From IMG/VR virus record IMGVR_UViG_3300028888_000086: a stretch of DNA of 64,000 nt; one strand, given 5' to 3'. The stretch is from a virus. Its lineage: Duplodnaviria; Heunggongvirae; Uroviricota; Caudoviricetes. Position 1 is the stretch's first letter; each line of letters opens with the position of its first letter. The notes below the pieces were generated by a model. The model worked only from the letters and a program-made list of their open reading frames with translations, was not told the origin of the DNA and searched no databases. Position numbers and translations under genes: made by a program. This document shows positions 9,245-62,162 of this stretch, one piece after another.

Positions 9245-10736
9245 CTTGATATTCAAGCAGTTACGTTACTTCTGCCTCGTTCTCTTATGAACTGCTATAT
9301 GTCTCCATATAGAATAGACTATATCTTCATTATTAAATTTCTTAATAATGTTCCGCTTTTCCACTTACGATTTTAGTGTACTCCTGTAAAAGGATAGTCG
9401 TTGAGGAACAATAAACTTATTAGTCAGATAAGTTTTTTATTTCTTTAAATAATTCATCTAGATCTTCATATACTTTATAAGGATACTTGAAATCACTGTC
9501 TGACTTAGTTTTTATAATATTTGAGTAATAGAATACTCGTAAACCATGTTCTAAACAAAGATTTCGTTTATTATCATCCATTTTAACTCTTTCTTCAAAA
9601 GTATATTTTTTATCAAAAAATTCAGTTGGTTTAAAATGTTGTAATCCTTGACACTCTATAACTGCATTAAAGTCGGGTAAGTAAAAATCTACGTGCTGTT
9701 TTCTTTTATACTTTAACCAATCCCAGGTATATTGTTTTATTATATTAATATTATTATCTTTACAATATAATTCAATATCAACTTCTAAAATAAATCTATC
9801 TCCACAACTAGGACATCCACAATTACTTAAATGTATAGATGGTTGCTGCCAAAACGGTCCATGAGAATTACATATTATCTTAACTGGTGTAGTACAATTT
9901 ACGTACTCAACTTCATCATATCCATAAGTATCTTTATGTATTAATTTTGCGCGACGTATAAATTCTTCAGTATTAATATTAACTCCACCATTACACTCTG
10001 AACACCCATGTCCATATAAATGATCATGTGGTCTTTGAGTAAATTCTTTTTTACACCTATTACAAATCAATTTAACTGGTGTATTGATATTTACATAATT
10101 TACTTCACTGTAATCATATTTATCTTCGCCATGTACTTTTTTAGCTGCTTCTATAAAACTTTCTGTTGTGTATTTTTTATATGGACTTGGATTACATTCT
10201 TTACATCCACATCCCTGTAAAATATCAACCGGCTTAATTTCAAAATACCCATGTATATCACAATTTAGTATAACAGGCGTACTACTATTAATATAATTAA
10301 CTTTATTATATCCGTATCTATCTCCATGAATCTCTCTAGCCTTTTCTATAAACTGTTCCTGTGTATATTTTACTCCACCTTTACAGTTAGGACATCCTTG
10401 TCCACAGAGATGATTGTGTGCAGTCTGAATAAATTCATTTCTGCACTTATTACAAATTATAATAACTTTATCTTTACTTGATGTATAATTTACTTTGCTA
10501 TAATCATATTTATTTTCACCATGTACTTTTTTAGATCTTTCTATAAATTCTTCTGTTGTATATTTTTTCATTATAATTTTAGTTTATATAATTTATTTAT
10601 ATTGTTCCTGCTGATTTTCTCTATTTTATGAATTTTTAGGGTAGGTGACTAAATCCTACATTAACCTCCTATCATAAACCTAGCGAGAGTTTCCAGCATT
10701 TAACGGAATTTTAAAACACCAATTTTAAAATATTTT
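9245..10736 (-). mobile_element. group I intron B of rpoC (family 1), ~1.49 kb, carrying a homing-endonuclease ORF in a peripheral loop just upstream of P7
   Basis: R UUCCUCAACGACUAUCC (~9393-9409) and S GAAGAUAUAGUCUAUUC (~9311-9330) lie downstream of the ORF stop. The intron ends ...AUCAAG before GAU UUU GAC. The 5' exon ends in U (GCU). Confidence 0.65.
9420..10571 (-). CDS. intron-encoded homing endonuclease-like protein: 4 tandem Zn-ribbon repeats plus C-terminal Vsr/PD-(D/E)xK-like nuclease domain
   Basis: The repeat YT.E.FIE...K.HG..YDYS.VNY....P..I.C..HG.F.Q.P..HL.G.GCP.C occurs 4 times. The C-terminus has HVDFYLPDFNAVIECQGLQHF (DFYLP..N.AIE..G.QH). Confidence 0.75.
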   Translation of the reverse strand: MKKYTTEEFIERSKKVHGENKYDYSKVNYTSSKDKVIIICNKCRNEFIQTAHNHLCGQGCPNCKGGVKYTQEQFIEKAREIHGDRYGYNKVNYINSSTPVILNCDIHGYFEIKPVDILQGCGCKECNPSPYKKYTTESFIEAAKKVHGEDKYDYSEVNYVNINTPVKLICNRCKKEFTQRPHDHLYGHGCSECNGGVNINTEEFIRRAKLIHKDTYGYDEVEYVNCTTPVKIICNSHGPFWQQPSIHLSNCGCPSCGDRFILEVDIELYCKDNNINIIKQYTWDWLKYKRKQHVDFYLPDFNAVIECQGLQHFKPTEFFDKKYTFEERVKMDDNKRNLCLEHGLRVFYYSNIIKTKSDSDFKYPYKVYEDLDELFKEIKNLSD

Positions 10737-10814: not shown

Positions 10815-11120
10815 CATACAAAACATTGAATATTCCGAAAAATACTTATATTTTCATATAAGACTAGACTATATCATCATCTATATTTCAAGATGGACTG
10901 CGCTTCAAAAATAGGAATTTCACCTATTTCTTACTCCATATAGGATAGTCGTTACACCTTTTTTGATTTATAATTTCAAAACTTGGCTCGGGATTGCCAT
11001 ATTATATTTCTATAACTTAGGTTTCCCCGATAGCAGAGATTTTATTTTCTCCACACCTAGCATTTACTAGTTCACAGTCTTTGCATTATAAGATCGCTCT
11101 TATAAGTCACAAATTTCTTT
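10815..11120 (-). mobile_element. group I intron A of rpoC (family 1, no ORF, ~306 nt)
   Basis: R GGUGUAACGACUAUCC (~10943-10958) and S GAUGAUGAUAUAGUCUAG (~10867-10884) are present. The 5' exon ends CAU (U). The intron ends UGUAUG. Confidence 0.7.
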
Positions 11121-12281
11121 ATGAAGTGTAGGAGGCCTATTAATAATTACTAGTTGTTTTTCTGCAAATTCCTTAAATAATTTTTGAGTTTCAGGATTAA
11201 ATGCTTCTTCTCTAGTAGCTTTCATAGCCTCTTTGTATGTAAAGTTAAGCTCTTTCTGTAGATGTTCAATAAATTTTTCTCTAAGTAATTCATAAGCAAT
11301 AGATACAGGAATACCAATTTCATCAATCTTCAAATCTGTTGCTGGAACAATTGGACATCTTGCAGAGTTTTTTGTTCTTACTCCAAATAATTCACGGGCT
11401 AAATTTTCTTTGGAGGTATTTAATAATTCAGTAGCTTCTTTTTTACCTGTATTCAAAAAAGCTCTAAGTAATGCAGTATATCTAACTTTTTCGCCAGGAG
11501 TTTTAAAGCGGCCAATTACTTCTTCATAATTCAGGTCATTACTTTTTTTATCCTGTACACAACAAAGTCTAATAATAATACTGTACCAAACTGACAATTT
11601 ACTAGACCCTTGAGTTTTCTTACCATTTTTATATTCAAAGGTAACGGGTCTCATCATTGCAGGTAATACTAAATAATATCGATTTATAAGTTTTCTGAAT
11701 TCGTTTGCTCTTTCTGGGAAGTGTTTTTCTATAATAGCTAACAGACCTTCATAAGAACATTTAGATTCATCTGTTATAAATTCAGATATTTTTAGTTCTT
11801 TCTTTGTGGGACTATAAGTAAATTGGCAAGTATCAAAAACCTTTATAGTTAATTTCTTTCCACCACGACCAGCATATCCTAAGTTTTTGAAATCATTACC
11901 TTGGAAATCTAGTTTGATAGTACTTTCAGAAAATATATCATCAAATAATTCTTTAAATATATCAAATCTCAAGTCATTTAAGTAATAAAAAGGTAATTCT
12001 ATTCTTGCAAATCTTCTCATACCTTCCTCTCTTGTAAAAACTCTAGCTCCACAAAAAGGGCAAGGTTCATGAGAGGCTCTTTTAATTTTACCACAAATAC
12101 AACGATCTTCATAGATTGACCCGAAAGCATCAACATCATAAACTCCTCCAGGTATGGGTTCAGGATAGTTGAATTTCAGGTTAAAGTCTCTATGATCAAA
12201 TAAAACTCTATCTCGACCATCACTTCTTGTATAGTCTAATATAGCTTCATCTGTTAATAATTCTAGTGATACTTTTGACAT
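11121..12281 (-). CDS. rpoC: RNA polymerase beta' subunit exon 1 (through ...INRPPTLH)
   Basis: N-terminal Zn finger CICGKIKRASHEPCPFCG, RFARIELPFYY (RMGHIEL), INRPPTLHK (LNRAPTLHR). The annotated tail EICDL* is intron read-through. Confidence 0.9.
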
Positions 12282-13566: not shown

Positions 13567-13654
13567 GGAGAGGTGCCGAAGTTGGTCATAACGGCCTAGA
13601 CTTGAAATCTTGTGTGTCTTTATAGACCCGTGGGTTCGAATCCCACCCTCTCCG
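13567..13654 (+). tRNA. tRNA-Ser(UGA), class II with long variable arm
   Basis: Acceptor GGAGAGG/CCTCTCC, D-arm GCCG...CGGC, anticodon loop CTTGAAA, T-arm GTGGGTTCGAATCCCAC. Confidence 0.8.
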
Positions 13655-13678
13655 CTTTCAAAATAAAATAACAAAAAT

Positions 13679-18045: not shown

Positions 18046-18354
18046 ATGATTAAATCTGATAATTACAAATTAAAATGGATTGATGAAGGAGGTATATTTT
18101 TCCCAGTTAATGGAAATACTATATTACATTCATCATTAGGTCCTGGTGTCTGGAAAGTTGTACCTAGTCCTCGTATGAATGATGGAAGATTAGGACTAAC
18201 TAAAGTATGTGATAAATTTGAATTCGAATACAAAATTTATGACATAGGAAATAAAAGCTTCAGAGATAAAGTTATTAATGTCTGGAATTCTGATCTGTTT
18301 ATAGAAGATGGAAGAAATTTAGGCATAATAATGAATGGAACAAAAGGAACGGGT
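18046..18354 (+). CDS. AAA+ ATPase exon 1 (ends ...NGTKGTG, first half of Walker A)
   Basis: The ORF ends exactly at GTKGTG-stop and the exon ends in U (GGU). Confidence 0.7.
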
Positions 18355-18616
18355 TAAATAAATAGCCCTTCTTCTAAGGAATTAGAAGAATTTTTAAGGA
18401 ACGAATTCGGTGAAGGCTGTGATGCTAATACCGAGCTAACAGAAATAATTACGTAAGGTATTTCTGTAGTGTAGAGCATAGTAGTTGAATAAATATAATA
18501 CTACCAAGAGCGCTCCTTACCCCAACTGAAATAAGTGGGTAAAAATATATGCCGAGCTTATAAGAAGAAGAATTATAAGAGTCTAGGGATAAAAAGCTCT
18601 AGAGATAACAAAACTG
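18355..18616 (+). mobile_element. group I intron (family 2) splitting the P-loop codons of the AAA+ ATPase gene
   Basis: Joining the exons gives GTKGTG|KTVSAKLLCNELNMPVLIVDSDF, i.e. GxxGxGKT. The intron contains AAUACCGAGCUAA and CCGAGCUUAUAAG, shared with the trnL intron, and ends ...AACUG. Confidence 0.65.
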
Positions 18617-19549
18617 AAAACCGTATCAGCTAAACTTCTCTGTAATGAACTTAATATGCCTGTATTAATTGTTGATAGTGATTTTGAAGGTAGAATCTTA
18701 GAATTTATACAAAATTTAGATTATGAATGTGTAGTTCTTATTGATGAAGCCGAAAAAACATTTAAAGACGAAAGAGATAACAGTGAAGTTTTATTGAAGC
18801 TTATTGACGGAATATATAATAGATCCAGAAAATTATATATTCTCACTACTAATAAATTAACTGTAAATGAAAATTTATTAGGAAGACCAGGTAGAATCAG
18901 ATATATACAAGAATTCAATAATCTTGATCCTAAATTGATATCACTGTATTTAGATGACAATTTAAAGGATAAAGAAAAGAAACAATACGTAACTGAAATT
19001 GTAGATCTTTTAGAAATCTCAACTATCGACATTCTCAAAAATGTTGTAGATGAGGTTAATATGTTTGGTGAAATTCCTGAAGATTCGCCAATGAATATTC
19101 CAAGAGGTAAGTACGTATTTGATATTCTTAAATTGTGGGGTTGTACCGAAGATGATATTCCAGATGTTAAAAAGTTTCTGGATAAACATAAGACTTCTGG
19201 AAAATCGTTATATGAATGGTTATATAATAAAGCAAATGATGAAGATCTTCCAGAAGAATATAAAGATACAGAAGATAACTACTACAATTATGAACTTCTA
19301 AGAAATGAATTTGGATATACCAATAGTTGTACATATTCTACAATAGATAAACTTTCTACAAAGTATAGTACAATGTGGAAAGACTGTGATACCTCTATAG
19401 GTAGAGTATTAACAGAACCAGATGCATTCCATAAAGAAGGTGGAGATTATAATTTTATGCTAATTGAAGGGAGATATGATAAGGAAGTTTATCTTTGCGT
19501 ATTACTAAAACAAAGAAAATCTCCAACATTATATCATGGAGTATATTAA
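18617..19549 (+). CDS. AAA+ ATPase exon 2 (Walker B VVLIDEAE, sensor-1 TTN, Arg finger RPGRIR)
   Basis: Classic AAA second region of homology LLGRPGRIRY. The frame is open upstream of the annotated Met back to 18617. Confidence 0.75.
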   Translation, partial: KTVSAKLLCNELNMPVLIVDSDFEGRILEFIQNLDYECVVLIDEAEKTFKDERDNSEVLLKLIDGIYNRSRKLYILTTNKLTVNENLLGRPGRIRYIQEFNNLDPKLISLYLDDNLKDKEKKQYVTEIVDLLEISTIDILKNVVDEVNMFGEIPEDSPMNIPRGKYVFDILKLWGCTEDDIPDVKKFLDKHKTSGKSLYEWLYNKANDEDLPEEYKDTEDNYYNYELLRNEFGYTNSCTYSTIDKLSTKYSTMWKDCDTSIGRVLTEPDAFHKEGGDYNFMLIEGRYDKEVYLCVLLKQRKSPTLYHGVY

Positions 19550-19561
19550 AAAAAAGAAAGA

Positions 19562-19592
19562 AGAGTAGAATTATTCTACTCTTTTTATTTTA
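19562..19592 (+). terminator. hairpin AGAGTAGAATTATTCTACTCT plus T-run
   Basis: Inverted repeat followed by TTTTTATTTT after the gene end. Confidence 0.6.
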
Positions 19593-19763: not shown

Positions 19764-22739
19764 TCACTCCACATTCTTTCTAAGATCCATAAGTATGTTA
19801 TCAGTAAACTGCTCAATACTAGAGCTAATATTTTCTGTTTCTTCATTATAGAATCCACATAAAATTTGTTCTGATAATATTCTTTTAGTTCTTATAAAAT
19901 CAAATCTTCTTTTATCCCAAGACCAATTTTCATCAGACTTTAACTGAATTACGACTTGTGGAATATAGACGTTTATCTCTGAAAATTTAGATCCACGTCT
20001 AGCTATTCTCCCAACTAACTGCACATAATCAGCATTAGTCCACGGTAAACTTAAGATTACTATTTTATTACAGCATTTTTGAAGTCCATCAATACCGGTT
20101 CCAATAGGGCTAGATGCAATAATAATATCACAATCTCCACTAATGAATTTATCCTCTAGTATTGAATTTCTATCTTTTACATCAACTTCTCCAGTATATA
20201 TTTCATAGGTAAATCCTTTTTCTTTTACCCACGACTCAATAATTGGAATAGATAACGTACTAATACTATAAATAATAGTTTTAGATTTAATTTCATCTTT
20301 AACTGAATCAAGTTTAATTCTAGTTAAGGCTTTATCAACTGTACTCCATGACATCTTATCTTGACTTATAAGACTGCTTTTAATATCAGTTCCATTAACT
20401 TCATTAAAATATGTATTAGTCTTTATGTCAAAATCAGAATTTCCAAAGATTCTAATACCGTTTTCAAATAACTCATACCTAGCAAGAACTTTATTTTTTA
20501 TAGTCCTGTTTCTAGTTTTGAATTTAGGATTTACACCACTAAGTAATCCCAAGACTGAATGAAGCTCAGTTAGGTCATTCTTAAAAGGTGTTGCTGATAA
20601 TCCTAAGACCTTGAGTTTTGGATTGTGTTTTTGTGCTTCCATTCTCATAATCTTTAGATATCTGTAAGTATTAGACTCTTTTGAATCTTCCATCTTTTTT
20701 GCTCTCTGTATTTCATCAAGTACTATAAAATCAACCATACCAGATTTAACTAGATTCATTATAGGTTCCTCTAAAATATCAGAAGTCCTAAATTTATCAT
20801 AGTTAATCAAGATATAATTAAATTTGTTCTCATCTATAGCATCAAGACAATTTTTATTTCCATTATAATCAATTACTATGCTATCTTTTTTATAGCATTT
20901 CTTTATTTCTCTTTTAACTGTATCTTTAACAGACAAAGGAGAAACATATATAGTAATTCTCATTCTGGAATATCTTGAAGCATACAGAGCACTTAATGTT
21001 TTACCACTACCAACTTCGGACCAGTTTCCAAAATACGGAGTCCTATTTAATTTATAAGCTACGTATTTTTGAAGTAAATCAGGTCTTAATGTATCTGGTA
21101 AACAATATATACAGGTAGTATCAAGATTAAAAACTTCATTGTACTCTCCTAATACAATTTCTCTTATCTCCCACAACCAATCTGAATGTTCAGATTTCTT
21201 TAATGATTTTAATTCTTCGATTGTAATATATAAATTGCTATAAGAGTCATTAATTATCTCTTGCCAAAAATCTTTGACCTTCTTTACTTTAAGTAGATCA
21301 TATAATTCCCCACTTAAAGTAATATTAGCAAGTATTTTTTCAAGAGTAAGCACGGTTTTCATACATCTAGAAATGCCAAATATTTTTTCTCTTTCTGGCA
21401 TCTCATAACCCAGATCCTCAGCTAATCTTCCTATAGTATCTCTTCTGTTCTGAGTATCTATTTCCGTTGATGCTATCTTATCTATAGCACTTCCAGAACA
21501 CTCAAGACCCAAAAGAACTAAATCATCAAAATCAAGATATTCAAAATCAAAAATTGTAATATCCTGAAGTCTTGGATCCAGGTTATATATAGGACCTTCT
21601 TTATATTTTTCTATCAGCTCTTTGAATTTAGGTTCATTTTTATGTACATAGAGAAAATTGTATAATCCAATTTCCTTTTTATTAGAGGGTTTAGGAAGTC
21701 TATTGTGTTTTATACAAAATTCTTCCAATTCTTCATATGTATAGTGGTTAAATCTATCATATTTTTCCCACAGTTCCTTAAATCTAGGTTCATTTTTATG
21801 CTTTCTAAAAAATTGATATAAACCAGTTTCAGTTTCCCCTCTATACTGACTAGGAAGTCTATTATTCTTTTTACAAAATTCTTCCAATTCTTCATACGTA
21901 TAATAATGAATTTTATTATATTTTTTATATAATTCTTTAAATCTTGGTTCATTTTTATGCTTTCTAAAAAATCGATATAAACCACCTTCTTCTTTATATT
22001 CACTACTTGGAAGTCTATTATGTTTTATACAAAATTCTTCCAATTCTTCATACGTATACTTCTTATCAGATTTACCATATTTTTCTATTAATTTCTTAAA
22101 CCTAGGCTCATCTTTATCTCTATGATAAACTAGAAATTGATATAATCTAATTTCTTCTTTATCAGAAGATTTAGGAAGTCTATTGTGTTTTATACAAAAT
22201 TCTTCCAATTCTTCATACGTATACTTCTTATCAGATTTACCATATTTTTCTATTAATTTCTTAAATCTAGGCTCATCTTTATGTATTCTAAGATATTGAT
22301 ATAGACCTTTTTCACTATATTTAGGAAGTCTATTGTGTTTTATACAAAATTCTTCCAATTCTTCGAATGTATTAAAATGATAGAGCCTGTGGAGTTTACC
22401 ATATTTTTCTATCAATTTCTTAAACCTAGGCTCATTTTTATGTATTCTAAGAAATTGATATAAACCAGTTTCCCCTTTATTTTTATTTTGTGGAAGTCTA
22501 TTATTCTTTTTACAAAATTCTTCCAGATCTTCATATATATATTTTTTATGGATTTTACTATAATTTTCCCACAATTCTTTAAATCTTGGTTCATTTTTAT
22601 ATTTCCAAAAAAATCGATATAAACTGCTTTCTTCTCTATACTTTTTTTGTGGAAGTCTATTATTCTTTTTACAAAATTCTTCCAATTCTTCATACGTATA
22701 AATTTTACTTTTGTTTCTTTTTTCTTCTTTGTTTTTCAT
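19764..22739 (-). CDS. SF2 helicase with 9 N-terminal ~45-aa tandem repeats (helicase-associated 'HA'-domain-like)
   Basis: Repeat YTYEELEEFCKKNNRLP...GLYQFL..HKNEPRFKELxEKY occurs 9 times. Helicase motifs GSGKT (I), VLDEIQ (II), GLSATP (III), GTGIDGLQ. Confidence 0.8.
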   Translation of the reverse strand: MKNKEEKRNKSKIYTYEELEEFCKKNNRLPQKKYREESSLYRFFWKYKNEPRFKELWENYSKIHKKYIYEDLEEFCKKNNRLPQNKNKGETGLYQFLRIHKNEPRFKKLIEKYGKLHRLYHFNTFEELEEFCIKHNRLPKYSEKGLYQYLRIHKDEPRFKKLIEKYGKSDKKYTYEELEEFCIKHNRLPKSSDKEEIRLYQFLVYHRDKDEPRFKKLIEKYGKSDKKYTYEELEEFCIKHNRLPSSEYKEEGGLYRFFRKHKNEPRFKELYKKYNKIHYYTYEELEEFCKKNNRLPSQYRGETETGLYQFFRKHKNEPRFKELWEKYDRFNHYTYEELEEFCIKHNRLPKPSNKKEIGLYNFLYVHKNEPKFKELIEKYKEGPIYNLDPRLQDITIFDFEYLDFDDLVLLGLECSGSAIDKIASTEIDTQNRRDTIGRLAEDLGYEMPEREKIFGISRCMKTVLTLEKILANITLSGELYDLLKVKKVKDFWQEIINDSYSNLYITIEELKSLKKSEHSDWLWEIREIVLGEYNEVFNLDTTCIYCLPDTLRPDLLQKYVAYKLNRTPYFGNWSEVGSGKTLSALYASRYSRMRITIYVSPLSVKDTVKREIKKCYKKDSIVIDYNGNKNCLDAIDENKFNYILINYDKFRTSDILEEPIMNLVKSGMVDFIVLDEIQRAKKMEDSKESNTYRYLKIMRMEAQKHNPKLKVLGLSATPFKNDLTELHSVLGLLSGVNPKFKTRNRTIKNKVLARYELFENGIRIFGNSDFDIKTNTYFNEVNGTDIKSSLISQDKMSWSTVDKALTRIKLDSVKDEIKSKTIIYSISTLSIPIIESWVKEKGFTYEIYTGEVDVKDRNSILEDKFISGDCDIIIASSPIGTGIDGLQKCCNKIVILSLPWTNADYVQLVGRIARRGSKFSEINVYIPQVVIQLKSDENWSWDKRRFDFIRTKRILSEQILCGFYNEETENISSSIEQFTDNILMDLRKNVE

Positions 22740-22816
22740 AATTTTTTTAATTTTAATTGTTAATACTTGAAAATAAAAACAAGTAAATAGGATTTTATTA
22801 CCTATTTACTTCTCTA

Positions 22817-22833: not shown

Positions 22834-22923
22834 AGAATTATTAAATGGAATTTCTGAAATGCTTAAAACACGCTTAAAACGGTTAAAAATTCTTATATAT
22901 GTAAATATTAAATTTTATTAATT

Positions 22924-23313
22924 ATGTCAAATGAATTTTTATTAAATCTAGAAAACAAATTACAAGGTTGTGGTACTAGATTAAAAGAACTACATTGGAA
23001 CGCACCTAGTTTAAGTGTTCATAAATTAGTTGATGAATTTACAACAGAATTTAGAGAATTTGAAGATAATTTAATGGAAAATGCTCAGGCTCTTTTTGGT
23101 TTTATCGAAGTTGGTGATTTAAATCCAGTATTACCTGAAGCTAAAAATTTTATTGAATTATTAGAAGATGTAAGAGGTATGCTTGTAAATATTAAAAAAG
23201 AAGCTAAAGATAGTTTAATGTGGAGTGGAATTATAAATATCGTAGATGACTTCTTTGCAACTATTAATAAATATATCTACTTATCTAATATAGTAAAACG
23301 TTCTAATGATTAA
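22924..23313 (+). CDS. hypothetical protein
   Basis: 129-aa ORF with promoter motif 20 nt upstream and a terminator hairpin at ~23324-23348. Confidence 0.6.
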   Translation: MSNEFLLNLENKLQGCGTRLKELHWNAPSLSVHKLVDEFTTEFREFEDNLMENAQALFGFIEVGDLNPVLPEAKNFIELLEDVRGMLVNIKKEAKDSLMWSGIINIVDDFFATINKYIYLSNIVKRSND

Positions 23314-26475: not shown

Positions 26476-27018
26476 TTATATACTAGCTATTATAGTATAA
26501 TCATCAGAAAATTCTATAATTAAATTTTGTAAACACTCATTTAAAGACTTAGTAAAATTTAATAAGGTTTCATATGTTCCCCAACCATTAGGAGAGTTAA
26601 ATTTTTCTAGATCCGTTTTATTATCTTTTAAATATTTATAACCAATTTCTATACCATCAATATATTTTTGATCTACATATTTAAAATTTAATACATCAGG
26701 ATGCCATAAATAATCATACAATGTCTTATCATTTATTGGAACATTTCTAGCCATTTGACCTAGATTATGTGTTATATTACCACTCCAAATAGTATTAGTC
26801 TCATATTCTACTTCATTAATATTACTTAAGTCTATATTAGGAAAATAAGCTTTAACCTCATCTATTGTTTTTAATTCTACAACTTCTCCATCCTTCCTTA
26901 CATATACGCCGGTTCCTTTATGTTTTACTGGTTTAGTTGAAATAATATCTAAATCTAAACTCATATATTTAATTGATTTATAAACTTTTCTTTTCCATGC
27001 TCTGTATTTAATTCCCAT
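26476..27018 (-). CDS. hypothetical protein (likely starts at the internal Met MSLDLDI, ~26961)
   Basis: ORF downstream of the Thg1-like gene. Confidence 0.5.
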   Translation of the reverse strand: MGIKYRAWKRKVYKSIKYMSLDLDIISTKPVKHKGTGVYVRKDGEVVELKTIDEVKAYFPNIDLSNINEVEYETNTIWSGNITHNLGQMARNVPINDKTLYDYLWHPDVLNFKYVDQKYIDGIEIGYKYLKDNKTDLEKFNSPNGWGTYETLLNFTKSLNECLQNLIIEFSDDYTIIASI

Positions 27019-27758
27019 CCATCATGAGATTTCCATACACTTCTTAAATAATCACCATATTCTTCTGAGTGATGCATTTCTTCTTCTTTCCATATAAATC
27101 TACCAAACTTTTTACCAGCATCATAATCATTCCAATCTATATTATATTTAGACTTTAATAATTCTATCTGCTCATCTGAATTTAAATTTAGTAGATCATT
27201 GTGAGATATGTAAGTTTGAGCTGCCTGTTGTTTGCTATTCTTTATACAGTCTAATTGTCTATATAAAAACCAAGCATAAACATCATTATCATTATCTACA
27301 TTAAAAGCTTTACAGTCAAACTGAAAAGGCTTATATTTACTAAATAAATCATTAACTCCTTCAATAATATCTCTAAAACTGGCACATTCACAGATAGATA
27401 AATTATGCTTTATCATCTCTAAGTTAAAAAATCCAGTTGCAATAGAAGAAATTAAACTATTTAACTTACATAACCTATATTCAAAAAATGGCTGATTTAT
27501 TTCATTTCTAGAGTCAATAAAGAAAGAAATCTCATCACTTTGAACATAAGCAAATTTACAACATTGAATTTCTTTACTTGTATATTCCGCTGTTTTATTC
27601 ATTAAGTCTATAAAGAAATCATCGAATGGCCTCTTAAATTTCTTCTTTATTCTCTTACTAAAACTCCTACCATCTATCATACAAATTAATGGTAAATCCT
27701 TGTTTAATTTATAATTAACTCTCTCTCTATACTCATTAAACTTTTCTTCTAATGTCAT
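26961..27758 (-). CDS. Thg1-like protein (tRNA-His guanylyltransferase / 3'-5' nucleotidyltransferase family)
   Basis: ICMIDGRSFSK matches Thg1 VVRIDGKKFHEF, and AYVQSDEISFF matches AFGESDEYSFIL. The size fits. Confidence 0.6.
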   Translation of the reverse strand: MTLEEKFNEYRERVNYKLNKDLPLICMIDGRSFSKRIKKKFKRPFDDFFIDLMNKTAEYTSKEIQCCKFAYVQSDEISFFIDSRNEINQPFFEYRLCKLNSLISSIATGFFNLEMIKHNLSICECASFRDIIEGVNDLFSKYKPFQFDCKAFNVDNDNDVYAWFLYRQLDCIKNSKQQAAQTYISHNDLLNLNSDEQIELLKSKYNIDWNDYDAGKKFGRFIWKEEEMHHSEEYGDYLRSVWKSHDGWELNTEHGKEKFINQLNI

Positions 27759-34863: not shown

Positions 34864-35865
34864 TTATTTATCATTTATTAGACTGCTTGAATATTGAGAA
34901 ATTACTTGACATTCAGCTGTATTTCTAAAAGTATCTAAATCTCGAGAATTACAATATGACATAGCAGAACATAAGTAATCATGCATATTTTCTACCCATC
35001 CTTCTAAAGTATATTGTTTCTTTAATATAATTTCTCTCCCTTCTGATGTTTTTAATTCTGTAGATTTTTTACCCATTTGTTTTTGTGCTTTTTTAGTAGA
35101 CATTCCATAATAAGATACTGGATCACCTACATTTTCTCCTTTTTTAGCAGCTACAGTAAATAATTTTCCACACATTACATAATCAGCACCTAAAGCAATA
35201 CACTTTATAACCTCTGAATAACTAGAGATACCTCCATCAGCTATAATTTTACATTTACCTAATATTTTTGTTTTTATTTTTCTTATATCATCAAGTAAGG
35301 AAGCTAATGGATAGTGTACTCCAGTTTGCGTAGAAGATAAACAAGATGATCCCCCACCAATCCCCACTCTAATAAAATCCGCACCAGCATTTTCGTATTT
35401 TTCATAAGTTTCTGGATTTGCTATATTTCCTACCATTACAACAACATTAGTACCAAATTTATTTTTTAATTTTTTACATAAGTCTATTTGTTTTTTCATA
35501 TGTCCATTAGCTACATCAATTAAAATATGATATCTAATACTTTTTGCAGGTACAGGAAACTCTAATATATCTTCTACTTCTTTAATTGAAAAAGCACAAA
35601 AATATTTAGTCATTAATTCAACTCTTTTTTTAGATGATACTGTTCTAGGAATTATAACAGATATACCCAATTTATCATATTCCTTATAATTATTTTCATC
35701 TAATACACAGGACATAGGAGCAGTAATAAGAGGTAAATATTCTTCTCTTTTTCCAGTAATATCAAAACAAGTAGGATTACATTCAGATCTACTTTCAATT
35801 TCACTTATAACACTAGGAATAATACTAATATCCCTTAATGAATACAATGTTTCTTTATAAATCAT
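34864..35865 (-). CDS. guaC: GMP reductase / IMP dehydrogenase-family TIM-barrel enzyme (GuaC-like, no CBS domains)
   Basis: IDVANGH (IDVANGY), IRVGIGGGSSCLSSTQTGVHYPLASL ([27 protein letters not shown], catalytic Cys), ADGGI; ~333 aa. Confidence 0.65.
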   Translation of the reverse strand: MIYKETLYSLRDISIIPSVISEIESRSECNPTCFDITGKREEYLPLITAPMSCVLDENNYKEYDKLGISVIIPRTVSSKKRVELMTKYFCAFSIKEVEDILEFPVPAKSIRYHILIDVANGHMKKQIDLCKKLKNKFGTNVVVMVGNIANPETYEKYENAGADFIRVGIGGGSSCLSSTQTGVHYPLASLLDDIRKIKTKILGKCKIIADGGISSYSEVIKCIALGADYVMCGKLFTVAAKKGENVGDPVSYYGMSTKKAQKQMGKKSTELKTSEGREIILKKQYTLEGWVENMHDYLCSAMSYCNSRDLDTFRNTAECQVISQYSSSLINDK

Positions 35866-49178: not shown

Positions 49179-50885
49179 ATGAAGTTTTTGCGCTTTATAA
49201 GTTTGTTTAGCTTTATATATGAGAGAAAAAACTTAATATATATGATAGATAAAGAAACTTTTACTAATGAGATAGAAAAATTAGAAACAACGAAAGAAAA
49301 GGGAGATTATTTTTTAGAAGTATTATCTAAAGAGTTTTTTCCAGAAGAGGAGATTACTTTCTTAGATGGCTCAGGTGATGGAGGAATTGATGCTTATTTT
49401 ACTTGTATCGATGAAAATATAAGTAAATGGTCTATAATACAATCTAAACATGGAAGTTCTTATAAAGGTACTGATTCCATTTGTTGTGATTTTTCTAAAA
49501 TATTTATACACCTAGAAGATAAAGAGTATTATGGAAAAGATAATGTATTTTTATATTTAAGAGATTTTATAAAAGAATCTAGTGAAAAAATAATTATACT
49601 CTATCTTTTAACAGATAATAAAATAAGTGACTCTGAATTAAATTCATTCAAAACAATAAAAAATATATTTTCTGAACGATATAATATTAAATTTGAAGTT
49701 GAAAATTTATATCCTGATCTATTATATGAAAAAACATCTACAGAAAAGATATATAATATTGAATTACCTGGAAATTTTATAAAAGATGATGGATCTGGGG
49801 AACTAGTAGGAAAAGTAAAAATTAGTGATTTATTTAATTTCATGAAGAATTTTAAATCACTAGCTGGCGATATTAAATTATTATATAAATCAAATATTCG
49901 TCTTTACTTATCAAATAAACTAGCAAAAGCCATAGCTAGTACACTTAGTAATGATCCTGATAAATTTTTTGAATATAATAATGGAATAACAATTCTTACT
50001 AATGGAATAAATTATAATGAAAAAGGAGTATTAATTTTATGTAATCCTGATTGTAACAATGGATGTCAAACATCATTGACTATCTATAAATATATTGAAA
50101 ATTCTAAAATAGTTCCTAATTCTAATTTATGTGTTACTATAATTGATATTTCTAAAAAATCAAAAGAAGAAATAGTAAAAATAACAGAATGTAGAAATAA
50201 ACAAACAGCTGTAAAATCTGTTGGAAGTATATTTGTTCTGGATAAAAGAGTTGAGGAAATAAAAAACATACTTAAAAATGATTATGGAAAAATATTACAG
50301 ACTAAAAAAGGAGAATATAGTCCTAAAAAGATCGATTTTGTAGATTTAATGAGTATGTGTTTTTGTATAATTGATGGTACTCCTGGTATAGCTAAATTAA
50401 AAAATGCCGAACACTATAATTCTAAAACAGGTGATGATTTTATAACAAAATTAAAAGATGATAGAGAATTATTATTATTGAGTTATAGATTAGCGGAGAT
50501 TTGTGAATTACTTAATAAAAGATCATATAAATATCGAGTAGAGAGTTTAAGATATGCTCAAATATCAATTCTTTACACAATACTAGAAAAAGCTGTTGGA
50601 TCTGATAAAGGAAAAATGTTAAAAATACTCAATGACAATGATTTATATGATTATTTTATGAAATCAGCTACTGGATTAATCAGAATATATACAGATATTA
50701 AATCAAGGACAAAGGCAAAGTTTTTGTTTGATTATGAGAATGTAGATAATTTAGAAAGATTGAGTAAGTTATTAGATTTAAATACATCTCCAAAATTAAA
50801 TGAATTAATATCTAGTTGGTTTGAATTTACTTATAAAGAAAAAACTGATATTATAGATAAAGTTGAAAAAATATTAAAAAGTTAA
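49179..50885 (+). CDS. AIPR-like abortive-infection / PD-(D/E)xK nuclease-family protein (true start probably the Met of MIDKETF at ~49242, downstream of the promoter motif at 49208-49224)
   Basis: The N-terminus has GSGDGGIDAYFTCIDEN...IIQSKH (D..E.K nuclease-like signature) followed by a long alpha-helical body, matching AIPR architecture. Confidence 0.5.
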   Translation: MKFLRFISLFSFIYERKNLIYMIDKETFTNEIEKLETTKEKGDYFLEVLSKEFFPEEEITFLDGSGDGGIDAYFTCIDENISKWSIIQSKHGSSYKGTDSICCDFSKIFIHLEDKEYYGKDNVFLYLRDFIKESSEKIIILYLLTDNKISDSELNSFKTIKNIFSERYNIKFEVENLYPDLLYEKTSTEKIYNIELPGNFIKDDGSGELVGKVKISDLFNFMKNFKSLAGDIKLLYKSNIRLYLSNKLAKAIASTLSNDPDKFFEYNNGITILTNGINYNEKGVLILCNPDCNNGCQTSLTIYKYIENSKIVPNSNLCVTIIDISKKSKEEIVKITECRNKQTAVKSVGSIFVLDKRVEEIKNILKNDYGKILQTKKGEYSPKKIDFVDLMSMCFCIIDGTPGIAKLKNAEHYNSKTGDDFITKLKDDRELLLLSYRLAEICELLNKRSYKYRVESLRYAQISILYTILEKAVGSDKGKMLKILNDNDLYDYFMKSATGLIRIYTDIKSRTKAKFLFDYENVDNLERLSKLLDLNTSPKLNELISSWFEFTYKEKTDIIDKVEKILKS

Positions 50886-52418: not shown

Positions 52419-55400
52419 ATGAGAAAAAATAATGGAAAAGAAATTATGCCAGAAGAAATGTTAAGAAACTATATGATTTCTAAAGGCGTGGATAAAGCAA
52501 TAGATATAACTATAGAGTGGAATAAAGTAAAAAAGAATTATAACGGAGAGTATTTTATTCCTGATAGTAATTATGTAAAAAAGATTTTTGGTAAAACAAT
52601 ATTTGAATTCCTAAACATGAGTAAAAAAGGTAAAATGAAAAATGCAATGCCTGAGGATATGTTAAGGAATTTAATGATTGAAAACGGTGTTGATAAAGCA
52701 ATAAATATAAAAAATGCATGGAATAAAGTAAAAAAGAATTATAACGGAGAGTATTTTATTCCTGAATCGACATACGTAATAAAAACTTATGGTAAAACAA
52801 TACATCAAATTTTATGTATACCTACATTATCATCTCTTATGCCAGAGGATATGTTAAGGGATTTGATGATTGAAAACGGTGTTGATAAAATAAGAAACAA
52901 TCGAAAAATTTGGGATAAAATAGTGGATAAATATGATGGAGAATATTTTATTCCAAAATCAACAAATGTAAAAAGGGCTTATGGTAAAACAATACATCAA
53001 ATTTTAAATATGTCTTTGATCATGCCTGAGGATATGTTAAGGAATTTAATGATTGAAAACGGTGTTGATAAAGCACAAGATAAATGGAGAGAGTGGAATA
53101 AAGTAAAAAAGAATTACAACGGAGAGTATTTTATCTGTAGCTCTGGAGGTGTAAAAAGAATTTATGGAAAGACTGTATATGAGTTTTTTAATGAATTAGG
53201 ATATTATTTAAAAGAACGAGTTATTAATTTTCTTTCACTCCACATTGAAGACCTAGCTATGATGGATAAACCAGAGCTTCTTCAGTTAGGAATGTTAGGA
53301 GATTTGCCGAAAGAAGAACATAAAAAACTCATTGACTATCCTAAAGGGGAAGAGAAAGTAGGATTTATTAAAGAAATGGTTGAACGTCTAAAAAATCCTA
53401 AAGAAAATCAAGAGGAGGTAGAGACGTTTAATGAATTTCTAAATGAAGATGTTGATAAACCTGAAGAAACAGAGTCTTCTAATAAAGAAGAAACTGAATT
53501 TGAAAAAGGGCTTCATAAAGGATTAGAAATTGTTGAGAATTCTAAATCATATAACTTAGAAAAGCAAATCTCAGATCTTTTTGGTGGATTGAATGCTTTA
53601 GGTAATTTCAAACATAGTGATTTTACTAGTGAGGAAGCAATAGATTATATTGTAAGTTTCGAAATTCAGAAACTTTGGAATATAGTCATCTGCAATCCCA
53701 CCGAAGCTATGAGATTAATTGAAGAACAAATGCTTCAAAGAGGGAGTAGTGAGTTTTTCAGGAAAGTTATTAATGAGTTTATAAGACAGCATAATGAAGT
53801 AATTAATTTTATAATTCCGGATGGTTATTCATTTCCGTTCCAACCAACTTTAATGCAAAAATTGACTGCATTTATGGTTCTAGAAAAAGAACAGACAGCT
53901 AATTGGAGTGAAACTGGTTCGGGAAAAACTTTATCTGGAGTTCTATCATCAAGAGCTATAGATTCAAGAATAACTTTTGTAATAGCCGTAAACTCAACTA
54001 TAAATAACTGGACAGATGATGCTATTAAAAAAGCTTATCCAGACAGTAAAGTTTATAGAAAGAGTAATATAACAGATACTACAATTTTAGATAGAAATTT
54101 TCATAATTACGTAGTAGTTAATTATGAGGAGTTCCAAAATTCTAATAAATTCTTGAATAAATGGAAACCGTTCTTGATAAATAATAAAGTAGATTTTGTT
54201 ATCTTAGATGAAATTCAAAAAGTAAAAGCGAATAGTCGAGATAGCATGACTAACCGAAGAATAGTCATAGAAAATCTACTACAAGAGATAGACAAGAAAT
54301 GTGGTCGTGATTTAGAAAAAGAAGGTCGTAAAGTACCTATTCTTGCTCTATCTGCTACTCCTGTGATCAATAGTGTTAATGAGGGATTATCTATTATATC
54401 TCTCTTAAGGGGGATAGATTATACTAGTAAAAGAAATACTAGAAAGTCTGCATTAGCTTGTCATTTTGATATAGTTAAAATGGGCTTAAGACTAGTTGAA
54501 GAATCTCCTGCTATTGAGAAGTTAATTACATTCCCAATAAAAAGGGATATAAAAGATATTTCTGGAATTAATATAAAAGGAAATAAAAACTTCTTAGTCG
54601 CTATTGATGTTTGTGGTTGCTTGATTAAAATTGGAGAGTGCATCAGAAGAGGATATTTACAGCCAGGAATTCCTACTGTAATTTATACTGAATTAGTTAC
54701 TGATGTTATTGATCCTATTATTGGATTTCTTCAAGCAAACAATTTCAGAGTTGGTGAATTTACTGGTAGAAATGAAAGTACAAGAGAGATAATAAAAGAA
54801 GGTTTTATTGCAGGTAAATATGATGTATTAATTGCATCTAAACCAATTACAACTGGTGTAAATGGATTACAGAAAGTATGCAATAGGATTATTCCGATAG
54901 TTCTCCCGTGGACTTATGCAGAATATCATCAACTTATTGGAAGATTAAATCGTAAAGGAACTATATTTGATGAAGTACAGGTTATAATACCTACCATCGA
55001 GTATACTAATTCCGACAATGAAGTTTGGTCGCTTGATAATAATAGATTAGCTAGAATACATTATAAACAAATATTAGCTGATGTTATTATGACTGGAAAT
55101 ATTCCTGATGATATAATAACTACAGAACAAGCTTATAAATTAGCTAAAGATAAATTTCTTACCTTTATAAATAATGAAGGAGGTAGTGAAAAATCTAGGG
55201 AAATTCCAGTACAAGCAGCTGAACTTAAACCTGCACCACCTAAAGCAAGACCTGAGGGACAAGGAAATCAGAGAGATTACTTTTCTGAATTTCAAGGTAT
55301 TAATCAAAGAATATCAACCTCAACTTGTGATGGTGTATTTAGTAAGATCTTCAAAAATAAAGAAGATTGGGAAAATTACCACAACTTAAGAGAAAAGGCA

Positions 55401-55847
55401 ATTGGACAAAACCAGCCGCTAAAAATTATATCTCAAGATTTCTTAAAGTCTAAAAAACATAAGATTATTGGAGATATGGGATGTGGTATGAATCAGTTTA
55501 AAACATTATTACCAGAAAACTATGAAGTTATTTCTGTGGATATGTATGCGGCTGATGATACAGTGAAAGTATGTAATCTTATGGATACCTCAAAAATTAT
55601 TCCAAATGAAAGTTTAGATATCGCAGTATATTGTTTATCATTATGGAGTAGAGATTGGAGAGAAATTTTAAAAGATGCATACAGAATTTTAGATTATGAT
55701 GGAAAGATTATAATAGTTGAACCTGTTAGCTCATCATCGAAAAGTATTGATAAAATGAGACAAACCTTAATTGAAAATGGATTTACAAACATTTCAACAA
55801 CTAAGGATGGAGAAGATAAATTCTATTATATGACAGCCAATAAATAA
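52419..55847 (+). CDS. giant multidomain protein: 4 N-terminal ~55-aa repeats, then SF2 helicase, then C-terminal class I SAM-dependent methyltransferase
   Basis: Repeat MPEDMLRNLMIENGVDKA...WNKVKKNYNGEYFIP...YGKTI occurs 4 times. Helicase motifs GSGKT, ILDEIQ, LSATP, TTGVNGLQ. MTase motifs IIGDMGCGMN (motif I) and IIIVEP (motif IV region). Confidence 0.75.
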   Translation: MRKNNGKEIMPEEMLRNYMISKGVDKAIDITIEWNKVKKNYNGEYFIPDSNYVKKIFGKTIFEFLNMSKKGKMKNAMPEDMLRNLMIENGVDKAINIKNAWNKVKKNYNGEYFIPESTYVIKTYGKTIHQILCIPTLSSLMPEDMLRDLMIENGVDKIRNNRKIWDKIVDKYDGEYFIPKSTNVKRAYGKTIHQILNMSLIMPEDMLRNLMIENGVDKAQDKWREWNKVKKNYNGEYFICSSGGVKRIYGKTVYEFFNELGYYLKERVINFLSLHIEDLAMMDKPELLQLGMLGDLPKEEHKKLIDYPKGEEKVGFIKEMVERLKNPKENQEEVETFNEFLNEDVDKPEETESSNKEETEFEKGLHKGLEIVENSKSYNLEKQISDLFGGLNALGNFKHSDFTSEEAIDYIVSFEIQKLWNIVICNPTEAMRLIEEQMLQRGSSEFFRKVINEFIRQHNEVINFIIPDGYSFPFQPTLMQKLTAFMVLEKEQTANWSETGSGKTLSGVLSSRAIDSRITFVIAVNSTINNWTDDAIKKAYPDSKVYRKSNITDTTILDRNFHNYVVVNYEEFQNSNKFLNKWKPFLINNKVDFVILDEIQKVKANSRDSMTNRRIVIENLLQEIDKKCGRDLEKEGRKVPILALSATPVINSVNEGLSIISLLRGIDYTSKRNTRKSALACHFDIVKMGLRLVEESPAIEKLITFPIKRDIKDISGINIKGNKNFLVAIDVCGCLIKIGECIRRGYLQPGIPTVIYTELVTDVIDPIIGFLQANNFRVGEFTGRNESTREIIKEGFIAGKYDVLIASKPITTGVNGLQKVCNRIIPIVLPWTYAEYHQLIGRLNRKGTIFDEVQVIIPTIEYTNSDNEVWSLDNNRLARIHYKQILADVIMTGNIPDDIITTEQAYKLAKDKFLTFINNEGGSEKSREIPVQAAELKPAPPKARPEGQGNQRDYFSEFQGINQRISTSTCDGVFSKIFKNKEDWENYHNLREKAIGQNQPLKIISQDFLKSKKHKIIGDMGCGMNQFKTLLPENYEVISVDMYAADDTVKVCNLMDTSKIIPNESLDIAVYCLSLWSRDWREILKDAYRILDYDGKIIIVEPVSSSSKSIDKMRQTLIENGFTNISTTKDGEDKFYYMTANK

Positions 55848-61770: not shown

Positions 61771-61774
61771 TGTG

Positions 61775-61848
61775 TCGGAACGAAAGGATTTGAACCTTCG
61801 ACATCTTGGTCCCAAACCAAGCATTCTACCGAGCTGAATTACGTTCCG
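61775..61848 (-). tRNA. tRNA-Pro(UGG)
   Basis: Acceptor CGGAACG/CGTTCCG, anticodon arm CTTGG TTTGGGA CCAAG, T-arm GAAGGTTCAAATCCTTT. Confidence 0.8.
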
Positions 61849-61876
61849 AAGTTTTTTGTTATTTGTTTTGAAAATG

Positions 61877-61962
61877 CGGAGGCTACTGGGCTCGAACCAG
61901 TGCGTCCTTTCAGACCTACCAGTTTAGCAAACTGGCCCCTTCACCAACTTGGGTAAGCCTCC
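61877..61962 (-). tRNA. tRNA-Ser(GCU), class II
   Basis: Acceptor GGAGGCT/AGCCTCC, anticodon arm CCAGT TTGCTAA ACTGG, long variable arm, T-arm CTGGTTCGAGCCCAG. Confidence 0.8.
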
Positions 61963-61979
61963 ATTTGTTATTTATCTTG

Positions 61980-62052
61980 AGTAGTAGACGGGTCTCGAAC
62001 CCGCGACCTCGAACTTGGAAGGATCGCGCTCTACCAACTGAGCTACTACTAC
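61980..62052 (-). tRNA. tRNA-Gly(UCC)
   Basis: Acceptor GTAGTAG/CTACTAC, D-arm GCTCAGTTGGTAGAGC, anticodon loop CTTCCAA, T-arm GCGGGTTCGAGACCCGT. Confidence 0.75.
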
Positions 62053-62078
62053 TTGTTATATTTATGATGTGAAACTTT

Positions 62079-62162
62079 TTACAAATAGTAGAAGTGGGTG
62101 GATTCGAACCACCGAACCTATAAAGGAGCGGATTTACAGTCCGCCGCAATTGACCAACTATG
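62079..62162 (-). tRNA. tRNA-Tyr(GUA), bacterial-type with long variable arm
   Basis: Acceptor AGAGGTG/CACTTCT (one G.U), anticodon arm GCGGA CTGTAAA TCCGC, T-arm GGTGGTTCGAATCCACC. Confidence 0.75.

Follow-up and report, generated by a model that had tools for sequence, protein, structure and literature searches.

An array of HA-like repeats with rapid turnover on a Snf2-like ATPase of a jumbo phage

Helicase-associated (HA) domains (PF03457) are short three-helix units found in tandem on SF2 helicases. Tandem HA domains occur in the TtrA helicases of Streptomyces and in the TniQ proteins of telomeric Tn7 elements, and we know of no sequence specificity for any HA domain. In TtrA-type proteins, a ResIII helicase of ~400 aa is followed by C-terminal HA domains. 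Swi2/Snf2 enzymes such as Mot1, ISWI, RapA and vaccinia NPH-I are double-stranded DNA translocases that can have a partner such as RNA polymerase or TBP. Lastly, phage and plasmid methyltransferase-helicase proteins, P1 DarB for example, place a helicase and a methyltransferase together on a mobile element, and may be comparable to the proteins described here. DNA binding by HA domains has been reported (Mills et al. 2013, cited through PMC12191111 and 10.1101/2024.11.13.623437); in PMC12191111 the claim concerns 2KTA, the solved HA structure from Bacteroides vulgatus BVU_0683. Both a profile sample described below and 10.1101/2024.11.13.623437 place HA domains almost only with helicases, nucleases and TniQ.

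We analyzed a stretch of 64,000 nucleotides from a Caudoviricetes virus (IMG/VR record IMGVR_UViG_3300028888_000086), referred to as the window. It contains split RNA polymerase beta and beta' genes and five tRNAs. The RNA polymerase beta is closest to those of Staphylococcus, Listeria and Bacillus (AR9/PBS1) jumbo phages. Because this split subunit is most like those of AR9, PBS1 and the Staphylococcus jumbo phages, the gene content identifies the window as jumbo-phage DNA, and an origin in a giant eukaryotic virus was ruled out. An orthologue of the gene under study, P0002, lies on a scaffold of 394.8 kb.

That gene, p1 (19764..22739, minus strand), is an ATG-initiated open reading frame of 991 aa, in agreement with the initial annotation. 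It codes for an N-terminal repeat array, a helical linker and an SF2 ATPase core. A terminator-like hairpin readable on both strands (19558..19586) separates it from a convergent AAA-ATPase gene. An Rfam scan of the window returned tRNAs only; the AAA gene is split, and no intron was detected in its gap. Pfam detected Helicase_C, ResIII and DEAD in p1, and searches of Pfam, NCBIfam and PADLOC gave generic SF2 matches only and no specific family. Matches to E1_4HB, Ish1, SAP_new25 and PMBR were not taken as homology, because their scores sum many weak matches to the helix-1 motif. The linker (aa 386-555; 21075..21584, minus strand) is a non-repeat, acidic helical region with a net charge of -14 and no Pfam match. 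It is conserved across a wider helicase-methyltransferase family, and from about aa 426 it aligns with a second protein of the window, p2. The C-terminal end extends 26 aa past the core, and Pfam found no Methyltransf_8 domain there. Two orthologues were found, P0001 and P0002, the latter 79% identical to p1. When p1 and p2 were compared with 50,697 phage genomes by tblastn, there was either no match or short motif-level matches only.

The array consists of seven tandem repeats of ~53 aa over aa 14-385 (21585..22700, minus strand) and carries a net charge of +22; AlphaFold2 predicts three helices in each unit. The units, from repeat 1 to repeat 7, cover aa 14-66 (22542..22700), 67-119 (22383..22541), 123-172 (22224..22373), 173-227 (22059..22223), 228-279 (21903..22058), 280-332 (21744..21902) and 333-385 (21585..21743), all on the minus strand. 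At the DNA level, TRF reported a period of 159 bp, 6.4 copies and a score of 811 at 21690-22707. Each unit matched the repeat HMM with E values of 1e-29 to 1e-33, so that the repeat is far above chance. Tandem repeats had been described before as nine copies spread over the N-terminal 650 aa; the repetition itself stands, with a count of seven and a span of 372 aa. The pattern then noticed, GLYQFL and its surroundings, recurs in the consensus YTYEELEEFC[IK]K[HN]NRLP...E.GLYQFL..HKNEPRFKELIEKY. A single repeat was modeled by AlphaFold2 with a pLDDT of 88.5 as three helices (residues 3-13, 22-33 and 38-52). Pairwise identity between the repeats ranges from 55 to 84%; the differences are scattered through the loop and helices 2-3, and the repeat alignment showed no pair of hypervariable code positions.

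The resemblance to HA domains that had been proposed for these repeats was borne out in profile comparisons and not in direct Pfam searches. Pfam HA (cut-off, 28.4 bits) did not match full-length p1 at E<=1 or the isolated array at E<=10, and it matched the relative P0004 with an E value of 0.39 only. However, when the seven repeats were aligned by hhalign with 18 repeats, 17 of which are individually positive for Pfam HA, the probability was 94.5% (E 8e-8) over 33 columns, corresponding to helices 1-2 only. An HMM built from verified HA repeats, run against the window translated in six frames, had p1 as its sole match (E 1.5e-22). Conversely, the p1-repeat profile matched 1,411 proteins. Of 40 that were sampled, 20 had Pfam HA (best E 2e-114), 11 had HNH_repeat and 24 had Helicase_C. 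By sequence, the closest solved structure to the p1 repeats is 2KTA, a weak match (E 0.052) that we treat as a lead rather than as a test; the HA profile matches 2KTA with an E value of 2e-10. The 53-aa profile retrieved one fragment from 5.8 billion sequences, a search in which the E-value bar was too high for so short a profile.

Several features are common to p1 and HA proteins: a three-helix unit present in tandem, here in seven copies, an attached SF2 core, a conserved hydrophobic helix 1 and a following [GN]-R-x-P. In contrast, the unit is about 64 aa in HA and 53 aa in p1, and helix 2 reads L-Y-x-[FY]...H-[KR] instead of the L-G-x-W...Q-R signature seen in 2KTA and in the verified-HA consensus. 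Helix 3 also differs, and the array is N-terminal in p1 but C-terminal in HA proteins, which reverses the order found in TtrA-type helicases. The p1 core has only motif-level similarity to the ~400-aa ResIII helicases of classical HA proteins (best E 0.02) and is not specifically related to them. These comparisons partly support the view that the p1 repeats are divergent relatives of HA, homologous at the profile level only. No relationship was found between them and INT_rpt units.

The ATPase core of p1 (aa 556-965; 19845..21074, minus strand) bears the C-terminal SF2 motifs that had been recognized from the start as fused to the repeats. A motif scan placed motif I (GSGKT) at aa 577-581, motif II (DEIQ) at aa 675-678, motif III (SATP, within SATPFKN...EL) at aa 715-718, motif V (SSPIGTGIDG) at aa 876-885 and motif VI (QLVGRIARRG) at aa 907-916. 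Motifs I, Ia, II, III, V and VI are intact in p1 and conserved in seven of seven aligned family members. Foldseek with the p1 model gave Mot1, ISW1, SMARCAD1, Ino80 and CHD as best matches (E 4e-11 to 1e-8), Mot1 coming first, with RecQ helicases following the Snf2 remodelers at about 2e-8; RapA and the vaccinia RNA polymerase complex are also on the list. This Snf2-like ranking is soft because confidence in the model of the full-length protein is low (pLDDT 64). p1 scored 19.3 bits against Pfam SNF2-rel_dom, under the cut-off of 24.9, whereas the family member P0166 scored 30.9 bits, and most homologues of the core carry a precomputed PF00176. A phmmer search of p1 against solved structures pointed to the RecA2 domains of eIF4A and Dbp2. 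Among solved structures, the core in the family profile matched vaccinia NPH-I (6rfl_Y, E 1.7e-5) and otherwise only Vasa, weakly. The motif III signature SATPxxN...EL is common to p1 and the Swi2/Snf2 translocases, to which p1 is 12-17% identical, and the likeness suggested by the low-confidence model may extend to their fold.

A core profile search returned 50 proteins, mostly of about 880 aa with SNF2-rel_dom, Helicase_C and Methyltransf_8. The N-terminal extension and core of p1 are homologous to this helicase-Methyltransf_8 family (E 1e-115 to 1e-85, 27-35% identity), whose members come from Thaumarchaeota MAGs, other metagenomes and jumbo phages; the core also occurs in cyanobacteria. 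In most members, an array is either missing or made of INT_rpt units. The paralogue p2 (52419..55847, plus strand; 1142 aa) is a full member, with four ~64-aa repeats of an unassigned type (52446-53210), a helicase core and a C-terminal Rrp8-like Methyltransf_8 domain (55284-55832), whereas p1 lacks the methyltransferase and has the HA-like array; we read these differences as a probable loss and a probable gain, respectively. The two proteins are 28% identical over 561 aligned columns (E 2e-56). The initial annotation had paired them as repeat-array helicases, and their architecture and paralogy agree with this, except that the array of p2 is not HA-like: hhalign gave a probability of 0.4% between the two sets of repeats, which belong to different families. 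The p2 repeats did not match INT_rpt either (hhalign, 2.7%), and no Pfam family reached its gathering score with them, the best being DUF4279 at 20.0 bits versus 25. The Methyltransf_8 domain of p2 and its relatives matches human RRP8 (2zfu, E 1e-12). The comparison with P1 DarB fits p2 rather than p1, and the p2 methyltransferase is Rrp8-like rather than an N6-adenine DNA methyltransferase. Among the PHROG profiles matched by p1 and p2 are phrog_62 (DNA helicase, 1881 positions) and phrog_11801, annotated as DNA methyltransferase. In an unrelated protein, P0097, a helicase, HA and Methyltransf_8 occur together in a different order.

Comparisons between close relatives revealed turnover of the array. 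Outside a clean indel, p1 and P0001 share 99.9% identity; the indel, 55 aa or one unit across the boundary of repeats 3 and 4 (alignment columns 154-208), is a stretch absent from P0001. Relative to P0002, the array is 68% identical and the remainder of the protein 87.5%, and repeat 7 is the sole repeat with clear one-to-one orthology (84% identity). The p1-type array evolves faster than the core, with dN/dS of 0.23 against 0.15. With intact motifs and dN/dS of 0.10-0.23, p1 was ruled out as a pseudogene or decaying paralogue. Among relatives, the repeat HMM counted 7, 6, 6, 8-9, 5-6 and 3 HA-like copies. Whole arrays are also swapped between orthologues: the N-terminal arrays of p2 and its orthologue P0005 differ, although the two proteins share 63% identity over 899 aa, and other members of the helicase-Methyltransf_8 family have INT_rpt arrays. 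The combination of a helicase with HA was known already; the layout and the array swapping are new.

We lean towards the view that p1 is a Snf2-like DNA translocase held on DNA by a multivalent HA-like array, and the DNA binding, translocase activity and biological role that we infer for it would be as follows. The protein descends from the helicase-methyltransferase fusion family. Its basic array would tether the enzyme through multivalent contacts to nucleic acid, most probably double-stranded DNA, with little regard to sequence, thereby holding or targeting it on its substrate. The C-terminal motor would spend ATP to translocate on DNA and to remodel DNA or its complexes with protein. As an exchangeable, fast-evolving adaptor module, the array would suit an involvement in genome conflict, as defence or as counter-defence, or in the management of the phage's own DNA rather than in core replication. 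Some of the context points to conflict. A gene for an AIPR/AbiU-like protein (49179..50885, plus strand; Pfam AIPR, 2e-23; PADLOC AbiU, 1e-22) lies 1.5 kb upstream of p2, and gene maps show an AIPR gene next to the related gene P0003 as well, on the opposite strand of another contig. The neighbors of cellular homologues are either Mrr, PIN, UvrD-PDDEXK, SNF2 and MZB genes or integrase and transposase genes. p1 itself is not beside the AIPR gene, and because it has neither this neighbor nor a methyltransferase, a conflict role would be borrowed from its paralogue and relatives.

Other functions of the array have to be weighed against that of a tether. It was suggested at the outset that the repeats might mediate sequence-specific DNA targeting, and a programmable array in which each unit recognizes a single base or short DNA word, as TALE and PUF proteins do, would suit its tandem organization, its varying copy number and its exchange between orthologues; variable positions are also concentrated in the loop between helices 1 and 2 and in the C-terminal half of the latter. 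However, TALE and PUF arrays are made of near-identical repeats differing at a few code positions, unlike those of p1 with their 55-84% identity, dispersed differences and lack of a hypervariable pair. Nor did TRF detect in the window any tandem DNA repeat resembling a candidate multi-site target, and HA domains have no specificity known to us, so that the suggestion found no support and we consider such a code improbable. The fast evolution and copy-number changes would also fit an arms race over a protein target, with the array serving as a protein-protein scaffold or spacer, maybe one that brings the motor to a protein of the phage or the host. We give this little credence in view of the net charge of +22 and of the homology to HA, a domain for which DNA binding is reported and whose companions are almost only helicases, nucleases and TniQ (10.1101/2024.11.13.623437).

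The function of the motor can likewise be read in different ways. p1 could be a transcription-associated remodeler serving the multisubunit RNA polymerase of the phage, in the manner of RapA, vaccinia NPH-I or Mot1, with the HA array keeping it on template DNA. The NPH-I match of the core family (6rfl_Y, E 1.7e-5), the Foldseek list with Mot1 first and with RapA and the vaccinia RNA polymerase complex, and the split RNA polymerase genes 7-15 kb from p1 are all consistent with this, as is the Snf2-type helicase of phiKZ-like jumbo phages that Iyer et al. 2021 (PMC7824862) describe as co-varying with RNA polymerase. Nevertheless, p1 is not adjacent to the RNA polymerase genes, tblastn found no related helicase in any cultured jumbo phage, and the core family, mostly fused to a methyltransferase, is present in Thaumarchaeota and cyanobacteria, which do not have the phage RNA polymerase; such a function therefore seems unlikely. 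An RNA-directed enzyme, helicase or chaperone, comes to mind because relatives carry an Rrp8-type (rRNA m1A) methyltransferase, so that the family might remodel and methylate RNA; the RRP8 match (2zfu) and the eIF4A and Dbp2 matches go in this direction. We regard it as very improbable for p1, whose core has the motif III and perhaps the fold of Snf2 enzymes, translocases of double-stranded DNA, whose HA-like repeats are related to partners of DNA enzymes, and which has no methyltransferase.

Beyond the tethered translocase that we favor for p1, the exchange of arrays invites a broader and more speculative idea, which we hold to be rather doubtful. N-terminal repeat cassettes (HA-like, INT_rpt or a third, unassigned type) might be hot-swappable, interchangeable targeting modules on Snf2-like motors, with or without an Rrp8-like methyltransferase, across an uncultured jumbo-phage clade and related cellular elements. 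If so, copy number and repeat type could be retuned fast, redirecting the enzyme to new DNA targets in phage-host or phage-phage conflict.

HA repeats are widespread and poorly understood: the p1-repeat profile alone gathers about 1,400 cluster representatives, and for HA we found one NMR structure, beyond which there were only indications from genetics for Streptomyces TtrA and telomeric TniQ. The present phage clade constitutes a natural experiment, in which one type of motor carries 3 to 9 HA-like units or another type of repeat. As near-identical genomes differ by a single unit, how far array length and type contribute to DNA binding can be tested directly. The recurrent association of a helicase, an HA array and an Rrp8-like methyltransferase beside AbiU/AIPR genes may represent an uncharacterised conflict module of jumbo phages.

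The gene of p1, the 991-aa helicase, is an ORF of 991 codons with an ATG start on the minus strand (19764..22739). At the DNA level, Tandem Repeats Finder detected an array in its N-terminal part (21690-22707; period 159 bp, 6.4 copies, 76% matches, score 811), and this array and that of the gene at 52419, which encodes the 1142-aa paralogue p2, are the largest two tandem repeats of the window. Repeat analysis at the protein level delineated seven units (aa 14-66, 67-119, 123-172, 173-227, 228-279, 280-332 and 333-385), each matching the repeat HMM with an E value of 1e-29 to 1e-33. Their alignment bore out the consensus proposed in the initial annotation, YTYEELEEFCIKHNRLP....K.E.GLYQFLR.HKNEPRFKELIEKY, with 21 invariant columns, and reduced the nine copies over 650 aa counted there to seven copies spanning 372 aa. 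The array is basic, with a net charge of +22. It is followed by a non-repeat, acidic helical region (aa 386-555, net charge -14) for which no Pfam match was found.

The Pfam model of the helicase-associated (HA) domain, PF03457, matched neither full-length p1 nor the isolated array. We built a repeat profile (A2) from 34 repeats of p1 and five relatives and searched 1.84 billion representative proteins, obtaining 1,411 matches at E<=1e-3, including 366 at E<=1e-10. The best 150 of the 1,411 were dominated by two architectures, namely, a ~400-aa N-terminal helicase followed by 4 to 10 C-terminal repeats, and proteins made of repeats only. In a sample of 40 matches, Pfam identified HA in 20 (best E value, 2e-114), HNH_repeat in 11, Helicase_C in 24 and ResIII in 23. 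Eighteen repeats taken from the A2 matches, 17 of them individually Pfam-HA positive, served as an HA comparison set. The seven p1 repeats alone aligned with this set in hhalign (probability 94.5%, E value of 8e-8) over 33 columns corresponding to helices 1 and 2, and an HMM made from the set found p1 as its sole match in the six-frame translation of the window (E value of 1.5e-22). Among solved structures, the top sequence match of A2 was 2KTA (E value of 0.052), which the HA profile matched at 2e-10; according to Mills et al. 2013 (as cited in PMC12191111), this NMR structure of an HA domain points to DNA binding. A profile of the seven p1 repeats alone did not reach 2KTA, and Foldseek returned no match for a single-repeat p1 model. 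The helix-2 signature LGxW..QR of HA is replaced by LYxF..H[KR] in the p1 repeats, and helix 3 also differs. From these sequence comparisons, we conclude that, within the HA superfamily, the p1 repeats are a divergent subfamily that falls outside the curated Pfam threshold.

The C-terminal part of p1 contains SF2 motifs, as previously noticed: I (GSGKT, aa 577-581), Ia (YVSPLSV), II (DEIQ, aa 675-678), III (SATP, aa 715-718), V (SSPIGTGIDG, aa 876-885) and VI (QLVGRIARRG, aa 907-916). Pfam matches of p1 were Helicase_C, ResIII and DEAD. Motif III, which reads SATPFKNDLTELHSVLGLL, fits the Snf2 pattern. p1 and p2 are paralogues, aligning at 28% identity across 561 columns (E value of 2e-56); p2 has four ~64-aa repeats, a helical extension and core as in p1, and a C-terminal Methyltransf_8 domain (E value of 2e-23). 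Fifty proteins matched A7, a profile made from the extension and core common to p1 and p2. Most are of ~880 aa and combine SNF2-rel_dom, Helicase_C and Methyltransf_8, and many are from Thaumarchaeota metagenome-assembled genomes. Relative to the Pfam SNF2 cut-off of 24.9 bits, P0166 of this family scored above, at 30.9, and p1 below, at 19.3. With the full-length p1 model, which is of low confidence (pLDDT 64), Foldseek ranked the Snf2 remodelers Mot1, ISW1, SMARCAD1, Ino80 and CHD first (E values of 4e-11 to 1e-8), followed by RecQ, RapA and the vaccinia RNA polymerase complex. Against solved structures, the top helicase match of the family profile was vaccinia NPH-I (E value of 1.7e-5), and its methyltransferase part matched human RRP8. 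p1 is a member of a Snf2-related helicase-methyltransferase family, devoid of the methyltransferase. Classical HA-array proteins carry their repeats at the C terminus, whereas the p1 array is N-terminal. As the p1 core showed no specific kinship with the helicases of those proteins (best E value, 0.02), the HA-helicase fusion arose independently in p1.

The arrays of this family vary considerably. p1 and its orthologue P0001 are 99.9% identical outside one clean 55-aa indel, which corresponds to one unit. Compared with the more distant orthologue P0002, identity is 68% in the array and 87.5% in the remainder, and the last repeat alone shows clear 1:1 orthology. Purifying selection acts on all three parts, with Nei-Gojobori dN/dS values of 0.23 (array), 0.10 (linker) and 0.15 (core), but dN was ~3.4 times as high in the array as in the core. 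Five relatives have 6, 6, 8-9, 5-6 and 3 p1-like repeats. p2 and its orthologue P0005 share 63% identity over 899 aa, but P0005 has three HA-like units where p2 has four units of an unrelated type (52446-53210, plus strand; MPEDMLRNLMIENGVDKA...W.KVKKNYNGEYFIP.S..VKR.YGKTI). Pfam gave no significant match for the latter, and hhalign did not relate them to either HA-like or INT_rpt repeats; they are an unassigned repeat family. One to three INT_rpt (PF14882) units occupy the array position in other family members. p1-type repeats also occur in short helicase-free proteins (P0010, P0016 and P0045), some of which end in a different C-terminal tail and some of which may be truncated by their contigs. 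The unrelated P0097, an A2 match of 1591 aa, again combines the three domain types of the phage proteins, in a different order, with an N-terminal ResIII helicase, nine Pfam HA repeats (E value of 1e-60) and a C-terminal Methyltransf_8. Overall, the arrays of the p1/p2 family act as modules that can be exchanged and that evolve fast.

The window comes from an uncultured jumbo phage. It is AT-rich (G+C ~27%) and encodes split RNA polymerase beta (3026-4885) and beta' (11100-12281) fragments, separated by a DUF4379 treble-clef zinc-finger protein (9420-10571), all on the minus strand. The sequences most like the beta fragment (23-31% identity) come from jumbo phages of Staphylococcus, Listeria and Bacillus (AR9/PBS1); AR9 and PBS1 DNA contains uracil. 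P0002, 79% identical to p1 overall, lies on a 394,767-bp scaffold. By tblastn, a related helicase was found in no cultured phage. The window also carries five tRNA genes (Ser-TGA, 13567-13655, plus strand; a Pro, Ser, Gly and Tyr cluster, 61774-62172, minus strand), a Thg1-like tRNA-His guanylyltransferase homologue (26961-27758, minus strand), an IMPDH/GMP-reductase-like gene (34864-35865, minus strand) and a gene for a 720-aa SPFH/Band_7 protein (36619-38781, plus strand).

The immediate neighbours of p1, a split AAA ATPase, a Dps-like protein and unknowns, are uninformative. The AAA ATPase (phrog_2376) is divided between two plus-strand ORFs, 18046-18357 (profile positions 5-86) and 18656-19549 (profile positions 103-242). 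The gap of ~300 bp between them could be due to an intron, some other insertion or a frameshift; at gathering thresholds, Rfam detected nothing there. Between this gene and the convergent p1 gene, a hairpin with a 13-bp stem and T tracts on either side (19558-19586) looks like a bidirectional terminator. The Dps-like gene (phrog_858, starvation-inducible regulator; 22924-23313, plus strand) lies in divergent orientation to p1, and a 24-bp x2 tandem repeat (22898-22945) overlaps its start. No Shine-Dalgarno-like sequence was seen 5′ of the p1 start codon (22740-22790, ...TTAAAATTAAAAAAATTATG), the pattern we would expect with a Bacteroidota-type host. Samples with relatives include a rumen metagenome.

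An AIPR/AbiU-like gene (49179-50885, plus strand; Pfam AIPR 2e-23, PADLOC AbiU 1e-22) lies 1.5 kb upstream of p2, and an AIPR gene (7969-9810 of contig L001) adjoins the related helicase-methyltransferase gene P0003 on the opposite strand. The two genes may form a conserved module. Directly downstream of P0003 lies the gene of a stand-alone HA-like repeat protein (L001 14460-14846, plus strand; 128 aa), which matches HA and E1_4HB faintly and lacks an equivalent in the window. Cellular family members neighbour Mrr, PIN, UvrD-PDDEXK, SNF2, AAA_23 and MZB genes, or integrases and transposases. P0006 is a helicase whose C-terminal part carries eight p1-like repeats. On contigs L004 and L005, one of them from a rumen metagenome, it adjoins ParA, Rep3-like, amidase and LPD1/LPD5 polyvalent-protein genes; this context looks like a plasmid or phage-plasmid. 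HA arrays are known in Streptomyces TtrA, telomeric Tn7 TniQ proteins (10.1101/2024.11.13.623437) and PLD-nuclease defence proteins (PMC12191111).

In the mechanism that we consider most likely, the p1 array, which is basic (+22) and composed of three-helix HA-like units, would bind nucleic acid multivalently and tether the motor to its substrate. The Snf2-like motor would translocate on double-stranded DNA and remodel DNA or protein-DNA complexes. We found no evidence that the array is code-like, as the sequence-specific targeting suggested earlier would imply: the repeats are 55-84% identical and their differences dispersed. Iyer et al. (PMC7824862) describe Snf2-type helicases of jumbo phages and propose that they act in transcription or recombination. 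Among the candidate roles of p1, genome conflict, transcription and recombination, we lean towards conflict or DNA handling, given the gene neighbourhoods of the family and the turnover of the arrays. The kind of protein is already known, since HA-helicase fusions define the HA family. What is new is a divergent HA subfamily that Pfam misses, an N-terminal HA-like array on a Snf2-related core whose usual partner is an Rrp8-like methyltransferase, the swapping of cassettes among three types (HA-like, INT_rpt and the unassigned p2 type), the copy-number polymorphism of one unit, and the presence of an HA-like array helicase in a jumbo-phage setting.
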